Shown here: piece after piece, positions 1-17,895 of the stretch
How positions within the stretch are numbered: the first letter of the stretch is position 1
Layout: each line of letters begins with the position of its first letter
Virus record (IMG/VR): IMGVR_UViG_3300028591_000970
Strand: one strand, 5' to 3'
DNA from: a virus
Length of the DNA stretch: 18,024 nt
The notes under the pieces: generated by a model
The model's input: only the letters and a program-made list of their open reading frames with translations
Told to the model about the DNA's origin: nothing
Databases searched by the model: none
Translations under genes and position numbers: made by a program

Positions 1-2177
1 ATACCCTGTCCATTAACGATTTGTTCTCCTAACGAACAAAAGACTGCCGCCTGAATAGGATCAAGTTTATCAATCAAAGAATAATAAGCAGTATAAGTAA
101 CACTACTATATTTACATGTACATCTATAAGAAGCAAAACCTTCAACGGTAGAATTATTTACAACTAATGAACTTGCTGTCTGATTTGAAATATCTGTATA
201 TGCACCGTTTTGCCATTTAGACCATACCCAGTTAGTACAAGAAGTTGTTTTATCTGTAGAGCCATCCATTAGACGTGCATAAATAGTAATATTTTGTGAA
301 TCACGGCTAGTAAATACATTACCACCGATTGTATATAATTCAAATAATTTTGCATTAACACCATTGGTTGCCGCTGTACTACGTGTCCAAGTATAATTTT
401 GTGTAATTTGTTTTGTTGCTCCTGATGCTGTTGTTACTGTAAATGTTAAAGGTACTGTTCCTGATGCAGCGCTAACACTTACACTAGTCCCTAATACATA
501 TTTAACATGACCTACCGCACTAGCAGTAGAATCGGTAACAGTTGCTGTTACGCCAAGTAAAGTAGGGGCACTGACCGAACAAGGAACTTGAGTAATACCT
601 TCATAAGCCACAAAAGGAATATCTATAGTAGTTGAAGCTTGAGGTTTATTTGCGGAAGTACATGGAATTACATCTGCATAGTTACCCATAACTACATTAA
701 TCGCATCTGCTCCAGCCTCACCTTCTTCACCTTGTTCGCCTTTTGCACCATCAGAAGTAAATACAATAGTCTGACTATCAAGTAAAGTTTCAAAACTTCC
801 ACTCGCATACAATTCAACAGTCATATAATTAGCTTTAGAAAAAGCTGTTGCCATATTTGTTGATGTAATTACATATTCGCCTTTAGGTTCATCACTAGAA
901 GATTTATATATATTAGTAGAACCCGCTTTAATCCAAAAACGTCCTGTTGTAAAGATAGTCTTTGCAGCACTGCCCGTCTGCTCATATGCTTTAATTGTAA
1001 CGCTAGTAGGGGAATATGCGGCAGCTGTATCACCAGAAGGTGTAGTTTTATTAATCGCTAATGCACTACAATCTAATGAGTGAATTGTAGGTGAGGTACC
1101 ATTCTGTCCTGCTGTAACTTTTACTAAAGAAAAGGTTTTAATAATATTACCGTAACCACTACGTTGACAAGTAAAAGTAACACTACCAGTTGCACTTGAT
1201 ATACCAGTTACTGTAACTGTATCATTAGTTGCTGTTGTTTTAGACCTTGTAATAGTGACGTTTGTTGCGGCAGTTGAAATTGTCCAGTTCGCAGTATCAT
1301 TTATACCACCATTATAAATAATAACTTGAGATTTAGCTTCATCAAAAGCGCCCGCTATAGGATTCCCTTCTGCATCACATGGAATTCTTTGGTTATCATT
1401 TGTAAGGACTGCACTTACTGCCTTATCTCCAGGTGCACCATCATATAATCTTGTAATTGAATGTATATCATATACGTTTGCATCATCAGTAAGAACTTTA
1501 ATAGTTGCAACGTCACTAGTAAATACTGCATCTGTAGATTTTACGGCAAGGGTTGCCGCCTTTAATTGAGTAGCTGATAGATTAGGATAATTAGCCCATG
1601 TTCCATCAGATTTTTTATATTGCCAAGTTGAAATTGAAACATTATTTACAGTAGCAGTAAGAGTAATTGTACTATTAGTAACTAATGTTCCATCTTTATC
1701 ATATTTAAAAACATTTTCACCAGAAATAATACATGTCTTAGCAGAAGATGCTAACTTAACAAGGCTAAACGTAATCTGGCCTTCCGCTTTTAAAGTTTTT
1801 TGTGTTTCTGGCTCTAGATATTCAACAGTAACGATATAAGTTATCATAGAAGAATTTGGTGTAAACTTATTTGCCGTTACTTTTAAATCTCCATTAGTTT
1901 GTAAAGTTTCTCCTGTTGTTAAAGCTGTTGCGGCAGCTGTTCCTTCTCGTCTCGTCCATGTAACGGTAAGACCGTCCGCAGGTGGTTTTAACACAGTTGT
2001 ATTATAATAAATTGATGGAGACAGTGTTAAATTTGTGCTCCCCCAGTTAGGAGTATAACTGTTTTGATCTGGGTCATATATAATTGAAAGTGGCTGATTA
2101 CTTGTAGGATATACAGATAATTGCCCAACGTCAGTAAGGTCTACTAACGTTATTGAACCATATGTAACTTGTGCCAT
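1..2177 (-). CDS. Tail fibre / receptor-binding protein, partial (C-terminus beyond window start). Has a collagen-like G-X-Y stretch and Ig-like repeats. No in-frame TAG in >725 codons.
   Basis: ATG at 2177..2175 with RBS AAAGGAA about 9 nt upstream. Manual translation runs with no stop to position 1: MAQVTYGSITLVDLTDVGQLSVYPTSNQPLSIIYDPDQNSYTPNWGSTNLTLSPS... It contains DGAKGEQGEEGEAGAD, a 5x G-X-Y stretch at about 714..758. Ig-like segments have the pattern ...ASYRCTCKYSSVTYTAYY. The gene is not in the ORF track because it is open at the window edge. Two sampled 60-mers here are about 42 % GC, against 13-18 % for two 60-mers sampled in the recoded genes. Confidence 0.7.
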   Translation of the reverse strand, partial: MAQVTYGSITLVDLTDVGQLSVYPTSNQPLSIIYDPDQNSYTPNWGSTNLTLSPSIYYNTTVLKPPADGLTVTWTRREGTAAATALTTGETLQTNGDLKVTANKFTPNSSMITYIVTVEYLEPETQKTLKAEGQITFSLVKLASSAKTCIISGENVFKYDKDGTLVTNSTITLTATVNNVSISTWQYKKSDGTWANYPNLSATQLKAATLAVKSTDAVFTSDVATIKVLTDDANVYDIHSITRLYDGAPGDKAVSAVLTNDNQRIPCDAEGNPIAGAFDEAKSQVIIYNGGINDTANWTISTAATNVTITRSKTTATNDTVTVTGISSATGSVTFTCQRSGYGNIIKTFSLVKVTAGQNGTSPTIHSLDCSALAINKTTPSGDTAAAYSPTSVTIKAYEQTGSAAKTIFTTGRFWIKAGSTNIYKSSSDEPKGEYVITSTNMATAFSKANYMTVELYASGSFETLLDSQTIVFTSDGAKGEQGEEGEAGADAINVVMGNYADVIPCTSANKPQASTTIDIPFVAYEGITQVPCSVSAPTLLGVTATVTDSTASAVGHVKYVLGTSVSVSAASGTVPLTFTVTTASGATKQITQNYTWTRSTAATNGVNAKLFELYTIGGNVFTSRDSQNITIYARLMDGSTDKTTSCTNWVWSKWQNGAYTDISNQTASSLVVNNSTVEGFASYRCTCKYSSVTYTAYYSLIDKLDPIQAAVFCSLGEQIVNGQG

Positions 2178-2197
2178 AGTTTTTATTCCTTTCTTAA

Positions 2198-3019
2198 TCA
2201 ATCAAAAGAGACTTCACATTTAAATATTGCTTTATTCCATAAATCTGCGGGAGAGATAGTTATTGTTCTCGTATTTAAACGACTCCAATTAGGATCTTCA
2301 TTACCATACTAATCATATTTAATCCAATGAAAATTAGTTACAGTATCACTTATATCTCTATCTCCTTTTTTAACAGTAGCCGTTAAAAGAGTATTAATTC
2401 CCCTATTTTTAAAAATATTTCCCGCACTAGATTCAATCTATACTACTATGGGAGTAGCACCATCTTTTACCTTTTTTAAAACTAAAAAACGTCTGGCTTC
2501 TATCTGTCTATATATAACATGAATCTATATATATGCTTGATCTTCATATAAATCATGTACTATTATTTTATGTAAATTAGCGTTCCAAGAAGCATCAACA
2601 GAATCGGGAAATATAATATCCCATTGTATTCTTTCATCTCCAGTAATATCTTTTCCGCCATAATAAATATAAACATCTGTCTAGCATTTTGTAAAATCTC
2701 CATTCTTACCATCTTCATCGGTAGAAATTATTTGCATATCATTTGATAAACCTATAGCTAAAGCTCTCTATGATTGAACAAGTGCGGTAATTGCACTTAT
2801 ATGTGCACCAAGGTCTGGATAAATAGTTCCATCATATCCAACTCTTGCATCTGAAATCTATTTATCCATTTCCTCAGTATTATTTTCCAAATTATCAATA
2901 ATAAATTGAAGATTATCTCCATTGGTCATAAAAACATTATTACTACCGACCGCAACAGGAATTTTATACCCATACGTTCCATCTTTTTTCTGAACACGTA
3001 TAAATTTTAATTTATCCAT
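2198..3019 (-). CDS. Hypothetical tail or structural protein, 273 codons with 6 in-frame TAG codons (amber-recoded). Terminates at TGA.
   Basis: ATG at 3019..3017 preceded by AAGGAGATATATCTTAA. One frame continues through six TAGs: MDKLKFIRVQKKDGTYGYKIPVAVGSNNVFMTNGDNLQFIIDNLENNTEEMDK*ISDARVGYDGTIYPDLGAHISAITALVQS*RALAIGLS...KYD*YGNEDPNWSRLNTRTITISPADLWNKAIFKCEVSFD. It ends at TGA 2200..2198. The standard-code ORF track shows nothing here. Confidence 0.6.
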
Positions 3020-3106: not shown

Positions 3107-3403
3107 TTAAGCAGATACTACAAAATCTATAATTACTTCATTAGAAGAATCTTCCTTTACTTTTAATGAAGTAATTTTAACTTCATCTGCTTCATAAATT
3201 TTTGTTTTTCCTATTTTTATTTCTTTATTATTTATTAAAAATATTGTATCTTCAGGAGCAAAGATACCTATTCTTTCAATATGATCTACATCAAAAGCAG
3301 AATAGGTATCTTTTTTATTTATTAGTTCAAAAAGCTCTTGACCTCCAATAAATTTCCCTCCTTCTTGATCTCTTGCTCTTATTTGTCCTTGGTAACCATT
3401 CAT
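3107..3403 (-). CDS. Hypothetical 98-aa protein, no in-frame TAG
   Basis: ORF track: MNGYQGQIRARDQEGGKF... The RBS GAGGGGTG lies 7 nt upstream of ATG 3403..3401. The gene starts 4 nt after the TGA of the upstream gene. Stop is TAA at 3109..3107. Confidence 0.55.
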   Translation of the reverse strand: MNGYQGQIRARDQEGGKFIGGQELFELINKKDTYSAFDVDHIERIGIFAPEDTIFLINNKEIKIGKTKIYEADEVKITSLKVKEDSSNEVIIDFVVSA

Positions 3404-3407
3404 TTAA

Positions 3408-5927
3408 TCACCCCTCAACAATAAAGAATAAACCGTCATCTGAAATTTTATTTAAGTAAGAATTCATTTCAGCTGCTGTACCCATACCGCAATCCATCTA
3501 TCCGCGGGCAGCAGATTCAATCGAGCCTAAAAAGTACCATCCTTTAAAATTACCCTAAGTATTATAACTATAGTCAAAGGCATAAAACTCTTTCTTTACA
3601 TTAGGTACTCCAACAGTAATAATCTTACCTCTTAAATAATCATTATCATCAACACCCTTTGGATACATGGAATTTAATCTTGTAATAATATCAGAAATAG
3701 GTAAATCTGCAAATGAGGTACGTCCCGCTTCCGAATCTTCATATCCAAAATCAGTATGATTTAAATTTAAACCAATTAAAATTCCAGAATCTGTAAATAC
3801 ACTACCTAAATCTAACCAATTAGAATAAGATTTACCATCTCTTGAAGAAATAAGTGAACTAGGATATGATTTTCCTTCTTCACTTATTTTATCTCTTGTT
3901 ATAGTGCTTGTAAATAATACGACTAAATGATGGTCTGAAGTAATTTGTACATCATAAATAGAATCTATAGGAGTATCGCTTTTAAAGATATTCGTATTAT
4001 TTAATGCATCTATCTTTAATATACAATCATCATTAGGGCTAGAATTTTTAAATTCTACTTTAGCAGGATAATTAATAGTAAAAGTATCAGAGTTTTTTCC
4101 AGTATAATTAACAGTAAAAATACCTGTGTCATTATTAAAAGAAACACTAGAAATTAAACTACCTGCTAATTCAAAAGTATCTCTTTCTGGGTCTCCTTGT
4201 TTATTTTTTGTATTATACTAAATAACAAAATAACTCTTTTGTTCTCTTTCGTCTGTCTCAATAGAAGCACTTTTAATACTTCTAAAAACATTAGCAAATG
4301 AAGTCTGCTCTCCTGTATTATAAACAATACGCGTAGAATTACTATCTCTATCGTAACCAATACTATCTATCCATCTTATCTTTTGTATAGGTGTTTCATC
4401 AACAGTACTATTTCCGTTATGTTTAACTTTAACATCTCCATTAGCATCAATCTAAAAATCTGATACCCAAGACATAGGATGATGAACTTGTTCTCCAGTG
4501 TTTAACGTTATAATAAGTTCATTATTCTAAAAATCAATTCTCTATATTGCTTTTAAATATTCTATTTTCTATAAAGAACTTCCATCAGTATAATCTATTC
4601 TTATTGTACCATTATTTGCGATATCAATATTATCTATCAGTTTTAAATTATAAGAAACAATTTCTTTCTGTCCATTAGAATCCTATGTATTAAAATAGAT
4701 TTTCATTTTTGTTCTTATAACACCATCATCATCAGTTTCAGGTCCTATCTAAATATTATCTATTTTTTTAATATAACCTTTTTTATCAAGAGCTGTACCG
4801 TCAGTAAAATCAATATGTATATCACCATTATCCGCAATATCAAAAGTATCTTGCATAATTTGATTTAAAATTCCAACGAAATAAATCTTTTCTGGGTCTT
4901 GAGGATTTTTTTCATATTCATAATTATATAAATCATAAACCATTATTTGAGTATTCGGTTGAATAGTATATGTTAAATTACCAATTTGAAAACTAAATTT
5001 ATCATTTGTTGTTTCTACAACAGTATCATCTGTCTCTAATCCTTCTGTACCATAGAAAAATCTTGATTGTTCTTCACTATAATAATAATAGTTCTGCTCA
5101 TTAATAAAAATTTTTGTATCAGGTAAATCTTGGAATCTAATAACTCTAAGTTTCTTTAAAGCATCTCCTTTCACTCCTTCTGGAATATATATTTTCCATT
5201 TTTCATAAAAGGGATGATACTCTCCTGAGTCAATTCTTTCTGTTTTTGAACTATCTATAACAAATCCTTGCTCATCATAAGGAGAAATTTTCTCTGTGGT
5301 AAAATCTATTACAGGATAAGGAATTTTAAAACCTACATAAGCATCACTCTCATCGTTATTTATATTTTTAATAGATACTGTATACCATTTTATTTCATCA
5401 TTGTATTTAACAGTATCGTTTTCAACATATTTTCCTGGTAATAAATCTTCAGTAGGTAAACTAAAAGTGCCTTCTCGGCTTAAGATACTATATCCTTCTT
5501 GCGCTTCTTTATTCTTTAATTCAGTATAAGGCATCATTGTTAAATGCGGCGCACGTCCAGGAGGACCAACTATAGTTCCAATGTACTATGCACCTCCCGC
5601 ATTTATATTTTGATCAACATCATAATAAGCACTTTGATAATCCTATTCTGTTCCGTTTACAATCTAATCTGTATGAGCGGCATCTCTATATGCTCTATGC
5701 CCAGAGATCGTACGCCCACTACTATAATCATATCCTCTTCTAAAAATTTTTCCATTATCTGGATGACTTTTGTTAACAGTATTTATTAATACATACTAAT
5801 CATATTTTACTTCTGAAAAATTTGGTCCCGCTCTAAAATCATCTACCATAGAAATTATATCGGGATAATTTTTCACAATGACAAAAGGAGTTCCTTTACG
5901 ACCTCCATAAAAACTTCCATAATTCAT
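3408..5927 (-). CDS. Large tail-associated repeat protein, 839 codons with 13 in-frame TAG codons (amber-recoded). It has internal repeats of the type NGxIxIDYTDGxxL.
   Basis: ATG at 5927..5925 preceded by AAGGAGTGAGTTAAG. I translated it codon by codon on the minus strand. One frame (top coordinate = 2 mod 3) stays open from 5927 to TGA at 3410..3408. The only interruptions are TAG at 5798, 5666, 5645, 5588, 4751, 4685, 4571, 4544, 4529, 4454, 4220, 3557 and 3500. N-terminus: MNYGSFYGGRKGTPFVIVKNYPDIISMVDDFRAGPNFSEVKYD*YVLINTVNKSHPDNGKIFRRGYDYSSGRTISGHRAYRDAAHTD*IVNGTE*DYQ... It contains the track ORF 4749..5537 (MMPYTELKNKEAQ...), whose apparent stop is one of these TAGs. C-terminus: ...GNFKGWYFLGSIESAARG*MDCGMGTAAEMNSYLNKISDDGLFFIVEG. 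Confidence 0.65.
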
Positions 5928-6692: not shown

Positions 6693-8768
6693 TTAAATTT
6701 TTTCTGGGACTCTAGTTGCATTAATTGTTAACGTACTAGAATTATCTAAAGCAAAAGACAAACTATTAATTAAATAATCTCCATATATATTACTTTCTGC
6801 ATTTTTTACGGTAATTCTAGTATTAGGCTCAAGATGATAAATAGGTAATGTTTGTAAAGAAATATTCTCATTATATTTAGTATACTAATGTAAAACTTGT
6901 CTTATTTCTTCATAGGCGGAATACCTTGTTCCTCCTATATCAATAGCATCATATAACTAAGGGTCAAATTGATAATATGATTGTCCTCTCGCTATACACT
7001 CTTTTCTTAATTTCTACATTTCACTATTTTTTTCACCCTTTTTTATTAATATTATATCAGGAATCCAAGCCTAAAAAACACAATTAACATTTTTGTCTGC
7101 GTTAAAAACTTGAGACCGTCTTCCAATATTATTAACTGATAATTCTGCAATACTAGCGGACGGTTCATCAATAAAATCTAAAAAGAAATTAATTTGAGTC
7201 GGGTCATTTATTACTTCATCATAAAATTTTTGATTACGTATATCATAAATTAAAGGCCACTAATTATATAATTCTGCAAAATAATAATTACTATCTGTCC
7301 CTAACACATTAGAGACAAGTCCCTGGAAGAATAATTCAGTTCTCCAATCTTTAGTTTCAATTTCCTATAATACCGCATCAATTATAATATAACCGTACTC
7401 TTCATTAGCAATCTATCCCCATTTATAAATATTTTCTCCATCGTAATAAAAAGTGCCGGCCGCACCTTTTTTAGGGAAATTCTATTTTGAATTAAAAGTT
7501 ATAGGATAATACCAGTTCTATATTCCAGTAGATTCATCTGTATATTGAAAAACTTTATATTTATTTCCAGTTTTAGGTTTTTTATCAATAGCTAAATGAT
7601 ACCTTAGCGGCACCTCATACCCTTCCGCAGTTGTACGAATTCCCCACACGACAAAATCATTCTTAATTGCCTAATACTGTGGAGTATTACTGTAATTTAA
7701 TATTAAATTACTATCATTAAATTCAAAAACGGAAGTTCCATTATTTATATCTATTAAATAAGCCTATCTACTATCTCCTGCTATTGAATTAATATAATCT
7801 GGAACTAATTGCCTTTCGTTTGCACTATCTAAAATATATTTAGATTGTGCATTATTTAAATAATTTTTTATCTATCGAAAAACAAAATTCCCATCTAAAT
7901 CATAGAAATACTCATAATTACCTAAAACTTCTTTTATTTTATCTAATATATCCGTAACTGTATTCCCTGCATCTCCTATTAAATCTCCTGGAAAAGTAAA
8001 ATCGGTATATATGTATCCTATATCCTAACCGTACTAAAACATTTCTTTAGGCCAATCTATATCTTCTTTATGCTAGTCTGCATTTAAACTATAATAATAT
8101 TGACTACCGTTTTTATAAACATATAAAGGAACTTGACCCGTCCATTTCATAACTTGTTTTACTCTTGTATCTAAATCTGAAATTATTATTTTTCCTAATT
8201 GCTATCCACCAAAATGATTAACTAGCTATTGAATAATTTGATAGATTGTAGGTCTACTAATAATTTCATTACCATTCTAATCTACAGTAATATAATTATC
8301 AAATACTACTGAAGCGGGAAAGGTACCCCCGCACTCTCCGTTTAATAAACACATTTTATCTTTTAATTGTAGACTAGCTACTAGACCAGAATCAGAGTAA
8401 GAAATAGAGTTACCCATAATAACATAAACACCAAGCGGAAACCAAAGAATAGAACATCCCTAATATTTATCTGTAGTATTATTAAAACCTATTTGAAGAT
8501 TTATTTTTTTATTAATAGATAATAGATTATTAGCACTAGTAATATTATTATTTATATCATCAATATAAACACTTAATGTAGCTGTTCTTCTTATACTACT
8601 GTTTCCATCTATATTAATACTAGCAGAAATTACCCGACCTTCAATATCTTTAATTTCATCTTCTTCCCAATTTAAAACGGTAATTTTAACGAAATATTCT
8701 TTTATATGAAGGCCCGCTAACTATTTTAAAAAGGAGGCATCATTTAAAAATTTTTCTTTTTTAATCAT
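6693..8768 (-). CDS. Large baseplate/tail-hub-like structural protein, 691 codons with about 20 in-frame TAG codons (amber-recoded). Family not determined.
   Basis: ATG at 8768..8766 with AAAAGGAGATTGATATTA upstream. Translation: MIKKEKFLNDASFLK*LAGLHIKEYFVKITVLNWEEDEIKDIEGRVISASINIDGNSSIRRTATLSVYIDDINNNITSANNLLSINKKINLQIGFNNTTDKY*GCSILWFPLGVYVIMGNSISYSDSGLVASLQLKDKMCLLNGECGGTFPASVVFDNYITVD*NGNEIISRP... I checked the last 130 codons codon by codon: ...CVF*AWIPDIILIKKGEKNSEM*KLRKECIARGQSYYQFDP*LYDAIDIGGTRYSAYEEIRQVLH*YTKYNENISLQTLPIYHLEPNTRITVKNAESNIYGDYLINSLSFALDNSSTLTINATRVPEKI. It ends at TAA 6695..6693. I read the middle part by eye, so the TAG count is approximate. Confidence 0.55.
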
Positions 8769-17349: not shown

Positions 17350-17895
17350 ATGGCTGTTTATTTTACCGCAGACCCACATATCGGACACGATAAGGATTTT
17401 CTCTGGCGTCCGCGCGGTTTTTCTTCAGTTGAAGAACATGATACAGAAATTCTTAAACGATGGAATAGTGTTGTAACTCCAGAAGATACTGTTTATATTC
17501 TTGGCGACCTTTGTATGAGCGGAAACGAAAAAGAATGGAATCGTGTCTATAAAGTATTAAATGGTGAAAAATTTATTATTTGGGGGAACCATGATACAAA
17601 TAATAAACTTAATAAATATCAAACAGAATACGGTATGACATATCTTGGTTTTGCATCAATTTATAAATATAGTAAAAGGAAAATGTTTTATCTTTCTCAT
17701 TATCCTACTCTTGTAGGGAATTTTGAAGAAGAACGTTTCTTTTGGAATCTATCTGGACATACTCATAGTTCTAATAAATTTGAATTTGGACAATATAGTA
17801 TTTATAATGTAGCAATGGATGCTCATAATTGTTATCCCGTATCTATAGAGCAAATAATTAAAGATATTAATAAATATAAGGAGAAGAAAGAATGA
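17350..17895 (+). CDS. Calcineurin-like metallophosphoesterase, 181 aa. Candidate RNA 2',3'-cyclic phosphodiesterase / 3'-phosphatase healing enzyme.
   Basis: Canonical MPP motifs: DPHIGHD (17371..17391), GDLCMSG, GNHD, GHTH. The start is 1 nt after the kinase stop. Confidence 0.65.
   Translation: MAVYFTADPHIGHDKDFLWRPRGFSSVEEHDTEILKRWNSVVTPEDTVYILGDLCMSGNEKEWNRVYKVLNGEKFIIWGNHDTNNKLNKYQTEYGMTYLGFASIYKYSKRKMFYLSHYPTLVGNFEEERFFWNLSGHTHSSNKFEFGQYSIYNVAMDAHNCYPVSIEQIIKDINKYKEKKE

Follow-up and report, generated by a model that had tools for sequence, protein, structure and literature searches.

Why does a phage that uses TAG as a sense codon in its structural genes carry, in the same module, a long tail-fibre gene with no TAG at all? 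The question arises in IMG/VR virus record IMGVR_UViG_3300028591_000970, from which we analyzed a stretch of 18,024 nucleotides (hereafter, the window). A structural module occupies its minus strand from position 11655 down to 1; six genes of this module hold 62 in-frame TAG in ~3,100 codons and terminate at TAA or TGA only, leaving TAG unused as a stop, and they are followed by a tail-fibre-like open reading frame (ORF). Taken together, our results make it quite likely that this ORF belongs to a block that was recently swapped in from a standard-code pool and is still TAG-free, as part of recurrent recombination at a conserved joint. Relatives retrieved for comparison are referred to as L0xx (loci) and P0xxx (proteins); they are mostly ~20-kb pieces of ~140-kb genomes.

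The fibre ORF is free of TAG and directly follows a recoded gene

The elements that meet at the joint are:

1..2177, minus strand: the target ORF (tail-fibre-like), first 725 of 839 codons, cut by the left edge of the window; 0 TAG
2169..2199, minus strand: crossover interval, 31 nt identical in the window, L013 and L021 (three-way informative-site analysis)
2198..3019, minus strand: g274, a 273-aa recoded gene with 6 TAG and a TGA stop

The fibre ORF starts at ATG 2177-2175, runs for 725 codons without TAG, TGA or TAA, and exits at the left edge; the claim of a first-pass annotation that it contains no in-frame TAG was therefore borne out on retranslation. The reported spacing of 20 nt behind the TGA of a recoded gene was also exact. 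This gap separates the TGA of g274 (2200-2198), a gene with six in-frame TAG, from the fibre ATG and contains an AAAGGA Shine-Dalgarno sequence, so that the junction reads TTTGAT TGA ttaagaaaggaataaaaact ATG. By contrast, the module does not end with the fibre, as had been thought: in L049, a contig described below, it continues on the same strand with a 2,375-aa gene and others.

About 16 TAG had been expected in a gene of this length. The naive density of the neighbours gives a similar figure of ~14.5, but the right null depends on the amino acid that TAG encodes. In the neighbouring genes TAG makes up 24.3% of Glu-type codons, and the window part of the fibre contains 22 Glu and 26 Gln codons. 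If TAG is Glu, 5.3 TAG would be expected at the 22 GAR codons (P(0) = 0.002); if TAG is Gln, 10.7 would be expected in the fibre (P(0) = 1e-6). Since the expected number varies with the encoded amino acid, we tested the meaning of TAG (see below), although the conclusion on the fibre is independent of the choice between Glu and Gln.

The fibre and the genes before it have different closest relatives

The first-pass annotation had proposed that the fibre was recently acquired from a standard-code phage, and three lines of evidence supported this: incongruent relationships, a near-identical standard-code copy, and a mapped crossover. The backbone of the window is closest to that of the recoded locus L013 (2.8% nucleotide divergence; 94-98% amino acid identity of the neighbouring proteins), whereas the two fibres share 66% amino acid identity. 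The reverse was seen for the standard-code loci L021 and L007, which have no similarity to the window upstream of the C-terminal part of g274. A comparison of the fibre with standard-code phages, suggested earlier as a check, recovered a match of 98.8% at the amino acid level and 98.2% at the nucleotide level (1.8% divergence) in L021, and of 97.1% at the amino acid level in L007.

The change of partner is abrupt. In a sliding comparison with L013, nucleotide identity was 92-100% from 4200 to about 2200 and 50-85% below, and L007 and L021 gave the reverse profile. When the window was compared with L013 and L021 at three-way informative sites, it agreed with L013 at nearly all sites between 2900 and 2200, and with L021 at all but a few between 2168 and 1700. 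The intervening crossover stretch, 2169-2199, reads GATTAAGAAAGGAATAAAAACTATGGCACAA; it runs from the end of the g274 stop codon through the Shine-Dalgarno sequence AAAGGA into the fibre gene, of which it includes the first three codons.

The same junction is present in L049 (ERZ27256846 k141_3067073, 35 kb), which was reached via the cluster member P0125 and differs from the window by 19 mismatches over 12,177 nt (99.84% identity). L049 is a separate contig, hence the join is no one-off assembly error. Beyond the edge of the window, it completes the 839-aa fibre and adds genes for proteins of 2,375, 110, 97, 194 and >500 aa; the entire series is TAG-free. This TAG-free tract of at least 12.5 kb contains 149 GAR codons, at which 36 TAG would be expected at the backbone share (P(0) ~1e-18). 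L049 and L021 align in three stretches spanning ~10.5 kb, with 94-98% nucleotide identity.

We noted in addition that the 2,375-aa giant gene (L049 12590-19717) is itself a mosaic. Its ends are 94-98% identical to the standard-code locus L021, and a 1-kb internal segment (15211-16263) is 96% identical to the recoded locus L013.

Probable recurrent exchange of the block across two phage groups with different codes

Members of the fibre family occupy two genomic contexts. Group A, which is syntenic with the window and TAG-recoded, comprises L013, L044, L012, L008/L009, L017 (=L032), L019 (=L035), L018, L020 and L049. Group B comprises L003, L005, L006, L007, L010, L021-L031, L033, L034, L036-L041 and L045, on contigs of ~60-165 kb, and has a gene order of its own: a huge protein, a DUF6558 protein of ~265 aa, a ~1,017-aa protein, the fibre, and a protein of 1.8-3.2 thousand residues. 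Group B has zero in-frame TAG across thousands of codons, and TAG serves as a true stop in L005, L006 and two genes of the contig behind L021 (L050). What the two groups have in common is limited to the C-terminal ~215 aa of g274 and to the sequence from the fibre onward. Among the IMG/VR fibre loci, 19 of 22 lie in a standard-code context.

In a neighbour-joining tree, group-A fibres were polyphyletic and nested among group-B fibres; the fibre phylogeny, a second check proposed by the first-pass annotation, is thus incongruent with the neighbouring recoded genes. The five group-A lineages differ in how closely their fibres match those of group B:

Window fibre: 98.8% identity to the nearest group-B fibre; 0 TAG
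L012 fibre: 98% (P0007, in the group-B locus L045); 0 TAG
L017 fibre: 94%; 0 TAG
L013 fibre: 89%; 0 TAG
L008 fibre: 77-80%; 1 TAG

On backbones only 3-5% apart, the window, L012 and L013 each have a fibre allele of their own. The TAG count of every group-A locus falls from 2-22 per gene (one short gene has 0) to 0-1 exactly at the fibre start. Counted per Glu-type codon, the cassettes contain 0/127 TAG in L013, 0/141 in L032, 0/50 in L012 and 1/56 in L008; given the backbone share, counts this low have a probability of 9e-7 to 9e-18 per cassette. TAG-bearing genes return in L032 ~10.8 kb past the fibre start. The architecture of the window recurs, with other fibre alleles, in a further seven group-A contigs that come from separate samples. 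Collectively, a distal-tail block of at least 10.5 kb is exchanged recurrently between the recoded and the standard-code sister groups, and the swap in the window is no one-off.

Two loci depart from this scheme. L020 (13897-16371) is without a fibre gene; the second cassette gene lies directly behind g274 and opens, as the fibre does elsewhere, with the N-terminal motif, here MAQTTYGSITL. This gene has 6 TAG and is 84% identical to a standard-code group-B gene (L026). L042 (IMGVR_UViG_3300031867_000003, 202 kb; 1389-19432) represents a third context, TAG-recoded with a group-B-like gene order; it has 8 TAG in the fibre homologue, 19 in the upstream 1,211-aa gene and 22 in the downstream 2,286-aa giant gene.

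The GC excess of the fibre reflects its amino acid composition

The fibre had also been described as far GC-richer than its neighbours, at 42% against 13-18% in sampled 60-mers. The direction holds over whole genes (0.360 for the fibre vs 0.24-0.30 in upstream genes), but the sampled figures were unrepresentative: 60-mer means are 0.36 for the fibre and 0.27 for the neighbours, with widely overlapping ranges (0.23-0.55 vs 0.05-0.50). The excess is seated at second codon positions (GC2 0.499 vs 0.27-0.34), whereas GC at third positions (GC3) is 0.154 in the fibre and 0.07-0.17 in the neighbours. At four-fold families the difference, which persists over the whole gene, vanishes (GC3 0.134 vs 0.131). 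The fibre protein is rich in Thr, Ser and Ala and poor in Glu and Ile (Thr 15.4% vs 6.0%, Ala 9.8% vs 3.6%, Glu 3.0% vs 8.2%), and all fibre homologues have a GC2 of ≈0.5, whichever genome or context they occupy. The GC excess is therefore a matter of amino acid composition and carries no foreign mutational signature.

A recent horizontal acquisition would be expected to have an atypical silent-site composition and codon usage, and neither was found in the fibre. Because four-fold GC3 equals that of the neighbours, composition says nothing about the origin of the fibre; GC content is thus invalid as evidence of unameliorated foreign DNA, and we rejected this argument after the codon-position analysis. 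The fibre is unameliorated in its TAG content only.

At conserved sites, TAG behaves like a Glu codon

To assess the meaning of TAG, we aligned five divergent group-A lineages and recorded the codon of a focal lineage wherever all other lineages agree. A focal TAG was found in 23 of 150 conserved Glu columns, in contrast to 2/165 for Gln, 2/286 for Lys and 2/320 for Asp, and the pattern held lineage by lineage. Similarly, TAG columns with at least three identical other residues were Glu in 28 cases, Gln in four, Lys in two and Asp in two. In the outgroups L015 and L014, where TAG is not recoded, TAG sites are occupied by Glu in 35-38% and by Gln in at most ~7% of cases; where the two outgroups agree, Glu is found at 50 of 88 TAG sites. 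Ten standard-code homologues of the g274 C-terminus have Glu in 10/10 and 8/10 cases at two TAG sites. Lastly, in twelve low-Gln, putatively standard-code homologues of g691, a tail or baseplate-type gene of the module, TAG columns are 44% Glu and 5% Gln, while true CAR columns are 45% Gln. The alignment of TAG with conserved Gln that is expected under code 15 (TAG→Gln) was not seen. Changes from Glu to Lys or Asp are mutationally easier than changes from Glu to TAG and yet rarer, which argues that TAG is functionally Glu-like at conserved Glu sites. Together, these alignments suggest that in-frame TAG acts at conserved sites as Glu and not as Gln.

A counter-signal came from recent changes. 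Five changes between TAG and CAG or CAA separate the window from L013 and L012, and 4/6 TAG of L020 align with CAA or CAG in L026; neither comparison contained a change between TAG and GAR. These changes keep alive a reading of TAG as Gln, or a mixed reading; they also fit a transition-driven origin of new TAG at variable sites, and a Gln reading cannot explain the near-absence of TAG from conserved Gln columns. Two further alignments had little to say: Phass-1, included as a positive control for the method, offered 8 TAG sites at 31% identity and was uninformative, and the alignment of L042, at 37% identity, gave no assignment. On balance, we favor a lineage that reads TAG as Glu, in which the TAG-free block marks continuing standard-code gene flow and the TAG count acts as a residence clock. 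According to Borges et al. (preprint 10.1101/2021.08.26.457843), only TAG→Gln and TGA→Trp have been seen in phages, and we found no report of TAG→Glu in the phage literature searched.

Two side observations concern the code of this clade. The backbone genes span three codes: group A is TAG-recoded, L014 (Ga0326511_10000010) has 14 in-frame TGA in its g955, g691 and g839 homologues, and L015 (JAEIGA010002119.1) is standard, with TAG as true stops. Moreover, the g691 homologues P0127-P0246 in the public protein collection include recoded genes translated with TAG=Gln; their Gln content falls into two modes, at about 2.7% and about 6%, and conserved columns are dimorphic for Glu and Gln. Both features are probably a translation artefact if TAG is Glu.

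Recent exchange, selection, export or artefact

We propose the following sequence of events. The ORF would open a host-recognition block of at least 12.5 kb (the fibre, the 2,375-aa giant and several small genes) that forms a gene pool common to two sister groups of large phages, A, recoded in its baseplate-type genes, and B, with the standard code. Homologous recombination would replace this block at a conserved joint consisting of the upstream gene end, the ribosome-binding site, the start codon and the N-terminal motif MAQxTYGSITL. The window copy would have come from, or been exchanged with, a standard-code phage very recently, at 1.8% nucleotide divergence, and so would still lack TAG, as any gene in a standard-code genome must. 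A block residing in a recoding genome would then slowly gain TAG by mutation, and its TAG count would record residence time. A two-state model calibrated on backbone TAG turnover predicts 0.1-0.2 TAG in the window fibre since the split from L021. From these patterns we infer both the direction of transfer and the neutrality of TAG accumulation.

Several points weigh against this proposal. Composition gives it no independent support, GC3 being identical. The direction of transfer is read solely from the absence of TAG, and a TAG-free allele could move from A to B too. TAG-free or nearly TAG-free fibres were found in all five group-A lineages examined, hence a single recent event is insufficient, and either recurrent exchange, which is supported, or added selection is needed. 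Summed over the five group-A fibres, the two-state model gives 2.7-5.0 TAG, somewhat above the 1 observed. Furthermore, the code of group B was judged from ~20-kb loci rather than whole genomes, and the lengths of the exchanged blocks are lower bounds, as the 3' end lies beyond the sequence reached.

Some of these points speak for selection that keeps the block TAG-free, either for suppressor-independent translation or because read-through would be too costly in very long genes: the TAG-free state repeats in all five lineages, and over at least 12.5 kb, and the neutral-model sum exceeds the one TAG observed. Even so, we regard selection as an improbable explanation. The fibre lies 20 nt after the six-TAG gene g274, with no minus-strand terminator between them and promoter-like sites at chance level, so the fibre would be made along with suppressor-needing proteins and suppressor independence would bring no benefit; judging from this layout, co-transcription of the fibre with g274 is almost certain. 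Backbone genes of 691-955 codons bear 13-20 TAG, therefore read-through must be efficient. TAG is also found in cassette genes of L008 (1), L020 (6) and L042 (8 and 22), and since cassette genes do gain TAG elsewhere, selection against TAG is not required. Nor would selection alone lead one to expect polyphyletic group-A fibres, or a fibre 98.8% identical to that of a standard-code phage. Selection for translatability whatever the suppressor status, an alternative raised by the first-pass annotation, is thus unneeded and fits poorly. We also considered and rejected an early-gene status of the fibre.

Export in the opposite direction, with a block native to the recoded lineage and the window copy as the donor to standard-code phages, strikes us as very unlikely. 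It could draw on the freedom of a TAG-free allele to go either way, and on the downstream genes of 110, 97 and 194 aa, which are common to both groups. However, a block that had long resided under recoding should have TAG near the backbone share, a state illustrated by L042 and L020; standard-code genomes account for the majority of the sampled fibre alleles (the 19 of 22 loci above) and of the allele diversity; and export leaves the TAG-free state unexplained unless selection is added.

Finally, we give hardly any weight to chance (the fibre having too few Glu and Gln codons, 22 and 26) or to a chimera created in metagenome assembly through a short shared repeat. The junction does sit in a 31-nt stretch common to both phage groups, and its exact 72-nt sequence had no match in viral_contigs or genome_contigs. 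Against chance, the window part alone has a probability of zero TAG of 0.002 (Glu) or 1e-6 (Gln), and the whole tract one of ~1e-18; against a chimera, the junction is found again in the distinct contig L049, and the architecture in the seven further group-A contigs mentioned above.

The fibre protein and its putative docking surface

The label of tail fibre or tail adhesin is a fair one for the ORF product. Residues 1-177 match PHROG phrog_3267 'tail protein' (E=2.5e-35), and the family has 674 matches, with a full length of ~830-845 aa. The best deposited homologues (~36%) are 'tail protein' genes located after tape-measure and tail-tip genes in temperate siphoviruses of gut Clostridia. In the window, the gene lies at the distal end of the module, with six tail or baseplate-type genes before the fibre and a protein of 2-3 thousand residues after it on the same strand. 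For the full-length homologue P0001, AlphaFold (AF2) modelled a monomer (pLDDT 84) in which ~8 all-beta Ig-like domains are strung together, with a short collagen-like linker at 476-490. The top Foldseek matches of this model in the PDB were multi-Ig adhesion molecules and S-layer proteins, and no solved phage fibres. Pfam reported no domain in the fibre or g274, and PDB sequence searches with the fibre protein and with its profile returned no match. Its role in receptor binding, like that of the block in host recognition, is a putative one.

The g274 protein is 96% identical to that of L013 and about 50% identical to group B. Residues 184-271 match the C-terminal part of PHROG phrog_3267. In an alignment with 10 group-B proteins, homology joins the last ~215 aa of g274 to the C-terminus of the ~1,017-aa protein that standard-code phages encode before the fibre (for example L021 5185-8238), and g274 resembles this end of the larger protein made as a short, separate one. 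From this homology, the C-terminal part of g274 is probably a docking surface for the fibre, by which the same block can serve phages of both groups.

Other features of the window

The remaining features are:

3107..3403, minus strand: g98, a 98-aa backbone gene; 0 TAG
3408..5927, minus strand: g839, recoded structural gene, 13 TAG; 95% identity to L013
5943..6677, minus strand: g244, recoded structural gene, 5 TAG
6693..8768, minus strand: g691, recoded tail or baseplate-type gene, 20 TAG; PHROG phrog_32343 and phrog_1887 'tail protein'
8788..11655, minus strand: g955, recoded structural gene, 18 in-frame TAG; first module gene within the window
11819-17895, plus strand: region in the standard code

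The first-pass annotation had paired g98 with the fibre as a second TAG-free gene. The count of zero is correct but insignificant: g98 has 10 GAR codons (P≈0.06), and its orthologues in L009, L017, L018 and L020 bear 1, 3, 3 and 4 TAG, respectively. With 98-99% identity to L013 and L012, g98 is ordinary recoded backbone. Homologues of g691 are present in Phass-1 (33%) and Enterococcus phage EF1 (~30%). A single-protein search of viral_contigs with g839 found no match, and an alignment query was needed instead; a megablast of the whole window against deposited phages was likewise without a match. tRNA scans found no tRNA gene, hence no suppressor tRNA(CUA), in the window or in 15 related ~20-kb loci.

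The plus-strand region starts with a 186-aa protein, followed by an 832-aa vault/SPFH-type protein (12421-14919) with matches to MVP_shoulder, Vault_3 and Band_7/SPFH. The codon bias of the latter is pronounced (27 CAG and 0 CAA, 1 TTA and 6 TTG, 0 TCA and 4 TCG, yet 71 GAA and 10 GAG). The window and L017 versions of this protein are 97% identical, although the adjoining recoded backbone is only 43-66% identical. Further along (15567-17895, plus strand) lies a standard-code RNA-repair-type trio: an RNA ligase of 412 aa, a polynucleotide-kinase-like P-loop protein of 166 aa and a metallophosphoesterase of 181 aa.

Discussion

The exchange of tail-fibre or host-range cassettes by homologous recombination is classical phage mosaicism, as in P2, Mu, T-even and lambdoid phages. 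As in those systems, a distal tail block is replaced here as a unit, with the junction in a short conserved 5' segment; the conserved N-terminal part docks to the particle, distal parts vary, and the fibre phylogeny is decoupled from that of the genome. Unlike classical fibre mosaicism, the exchange crosses a genetic-code boundary and leaves a code-mosaic late operon, and TAG content provides a built-in marker of how long the block has resided.

According to the amelioration concept of Lawrence and Ochman, the donor signature of a foreign gene decays with residence time. The fibre block similarly retains a donor signature, but this signature is a missing reassigned codon, while the silent-site composition is identical.

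Partly recoded phages have been described from gut and rumen (Borges et al., preprint 10.1101/2021.08.26.457843; Peters et al., PMC9523058). The window resembles them in that in-frame TAG is concentrated in structural genes with TAA and TGA as stops, the neighbouring module on the opposite strand is in the standard code, and close standard-code relatives exist. In those studies, TAG-free genes were attributed to early expression, before the code switch (preprint 10.1101/2021.08.26.457843; PMC9523058). By contrast, the TAG-free genes here are late tail genes in a recoded operon, for which gene flow offers an explanation, and TAG appears Glu-like at conserved sites, whereas those authors report only the two reassignments named above. 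The Phass-1/EF1 clade, with genomes of ~130-145 kb, also mixes recoded and standard-code members; its receptor-binding fibre genes differ between close relatives, and TAG was assigned to Gln (Babkin et al., 2023, PMC10607447). This clade is only distantly similar to the window backbone, and a tblastn search with the fibre family in the phage collection gave no match to Phass-1.

Fibre-cassette swapping at a conserved 5' joint, and partial recoding alongside standard-code relatives, are already known. What is new is their combination: a late, co-transcribed host-recognition block kept in the standard code by gene flow across a code boundary.

If TAG is indeed Glu, this would be a new stop-codon reassignment in phages, and database translations with TAG=Gln would be wrong at ~2% of late-gene residues in the clade. 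Independently of that question, code-prediction and gene-calling tools should expect standard-code islands among late genes. The TAG content of imported genes could gauge the rate at which a reassigned codon spreads, and the hosts of recoded phages can be inferred with the help of standard-code relatives that have near-identical fibres. Alternative codes are often regarded as barriers to the exchange of genes, but in this case the barrier leaks, in one direction: phages that recode can import a whole host-recognition block unchanged from standard-code relatives, and the recoded lineage thereby keeps access to the common pool of receptor-binding genes.

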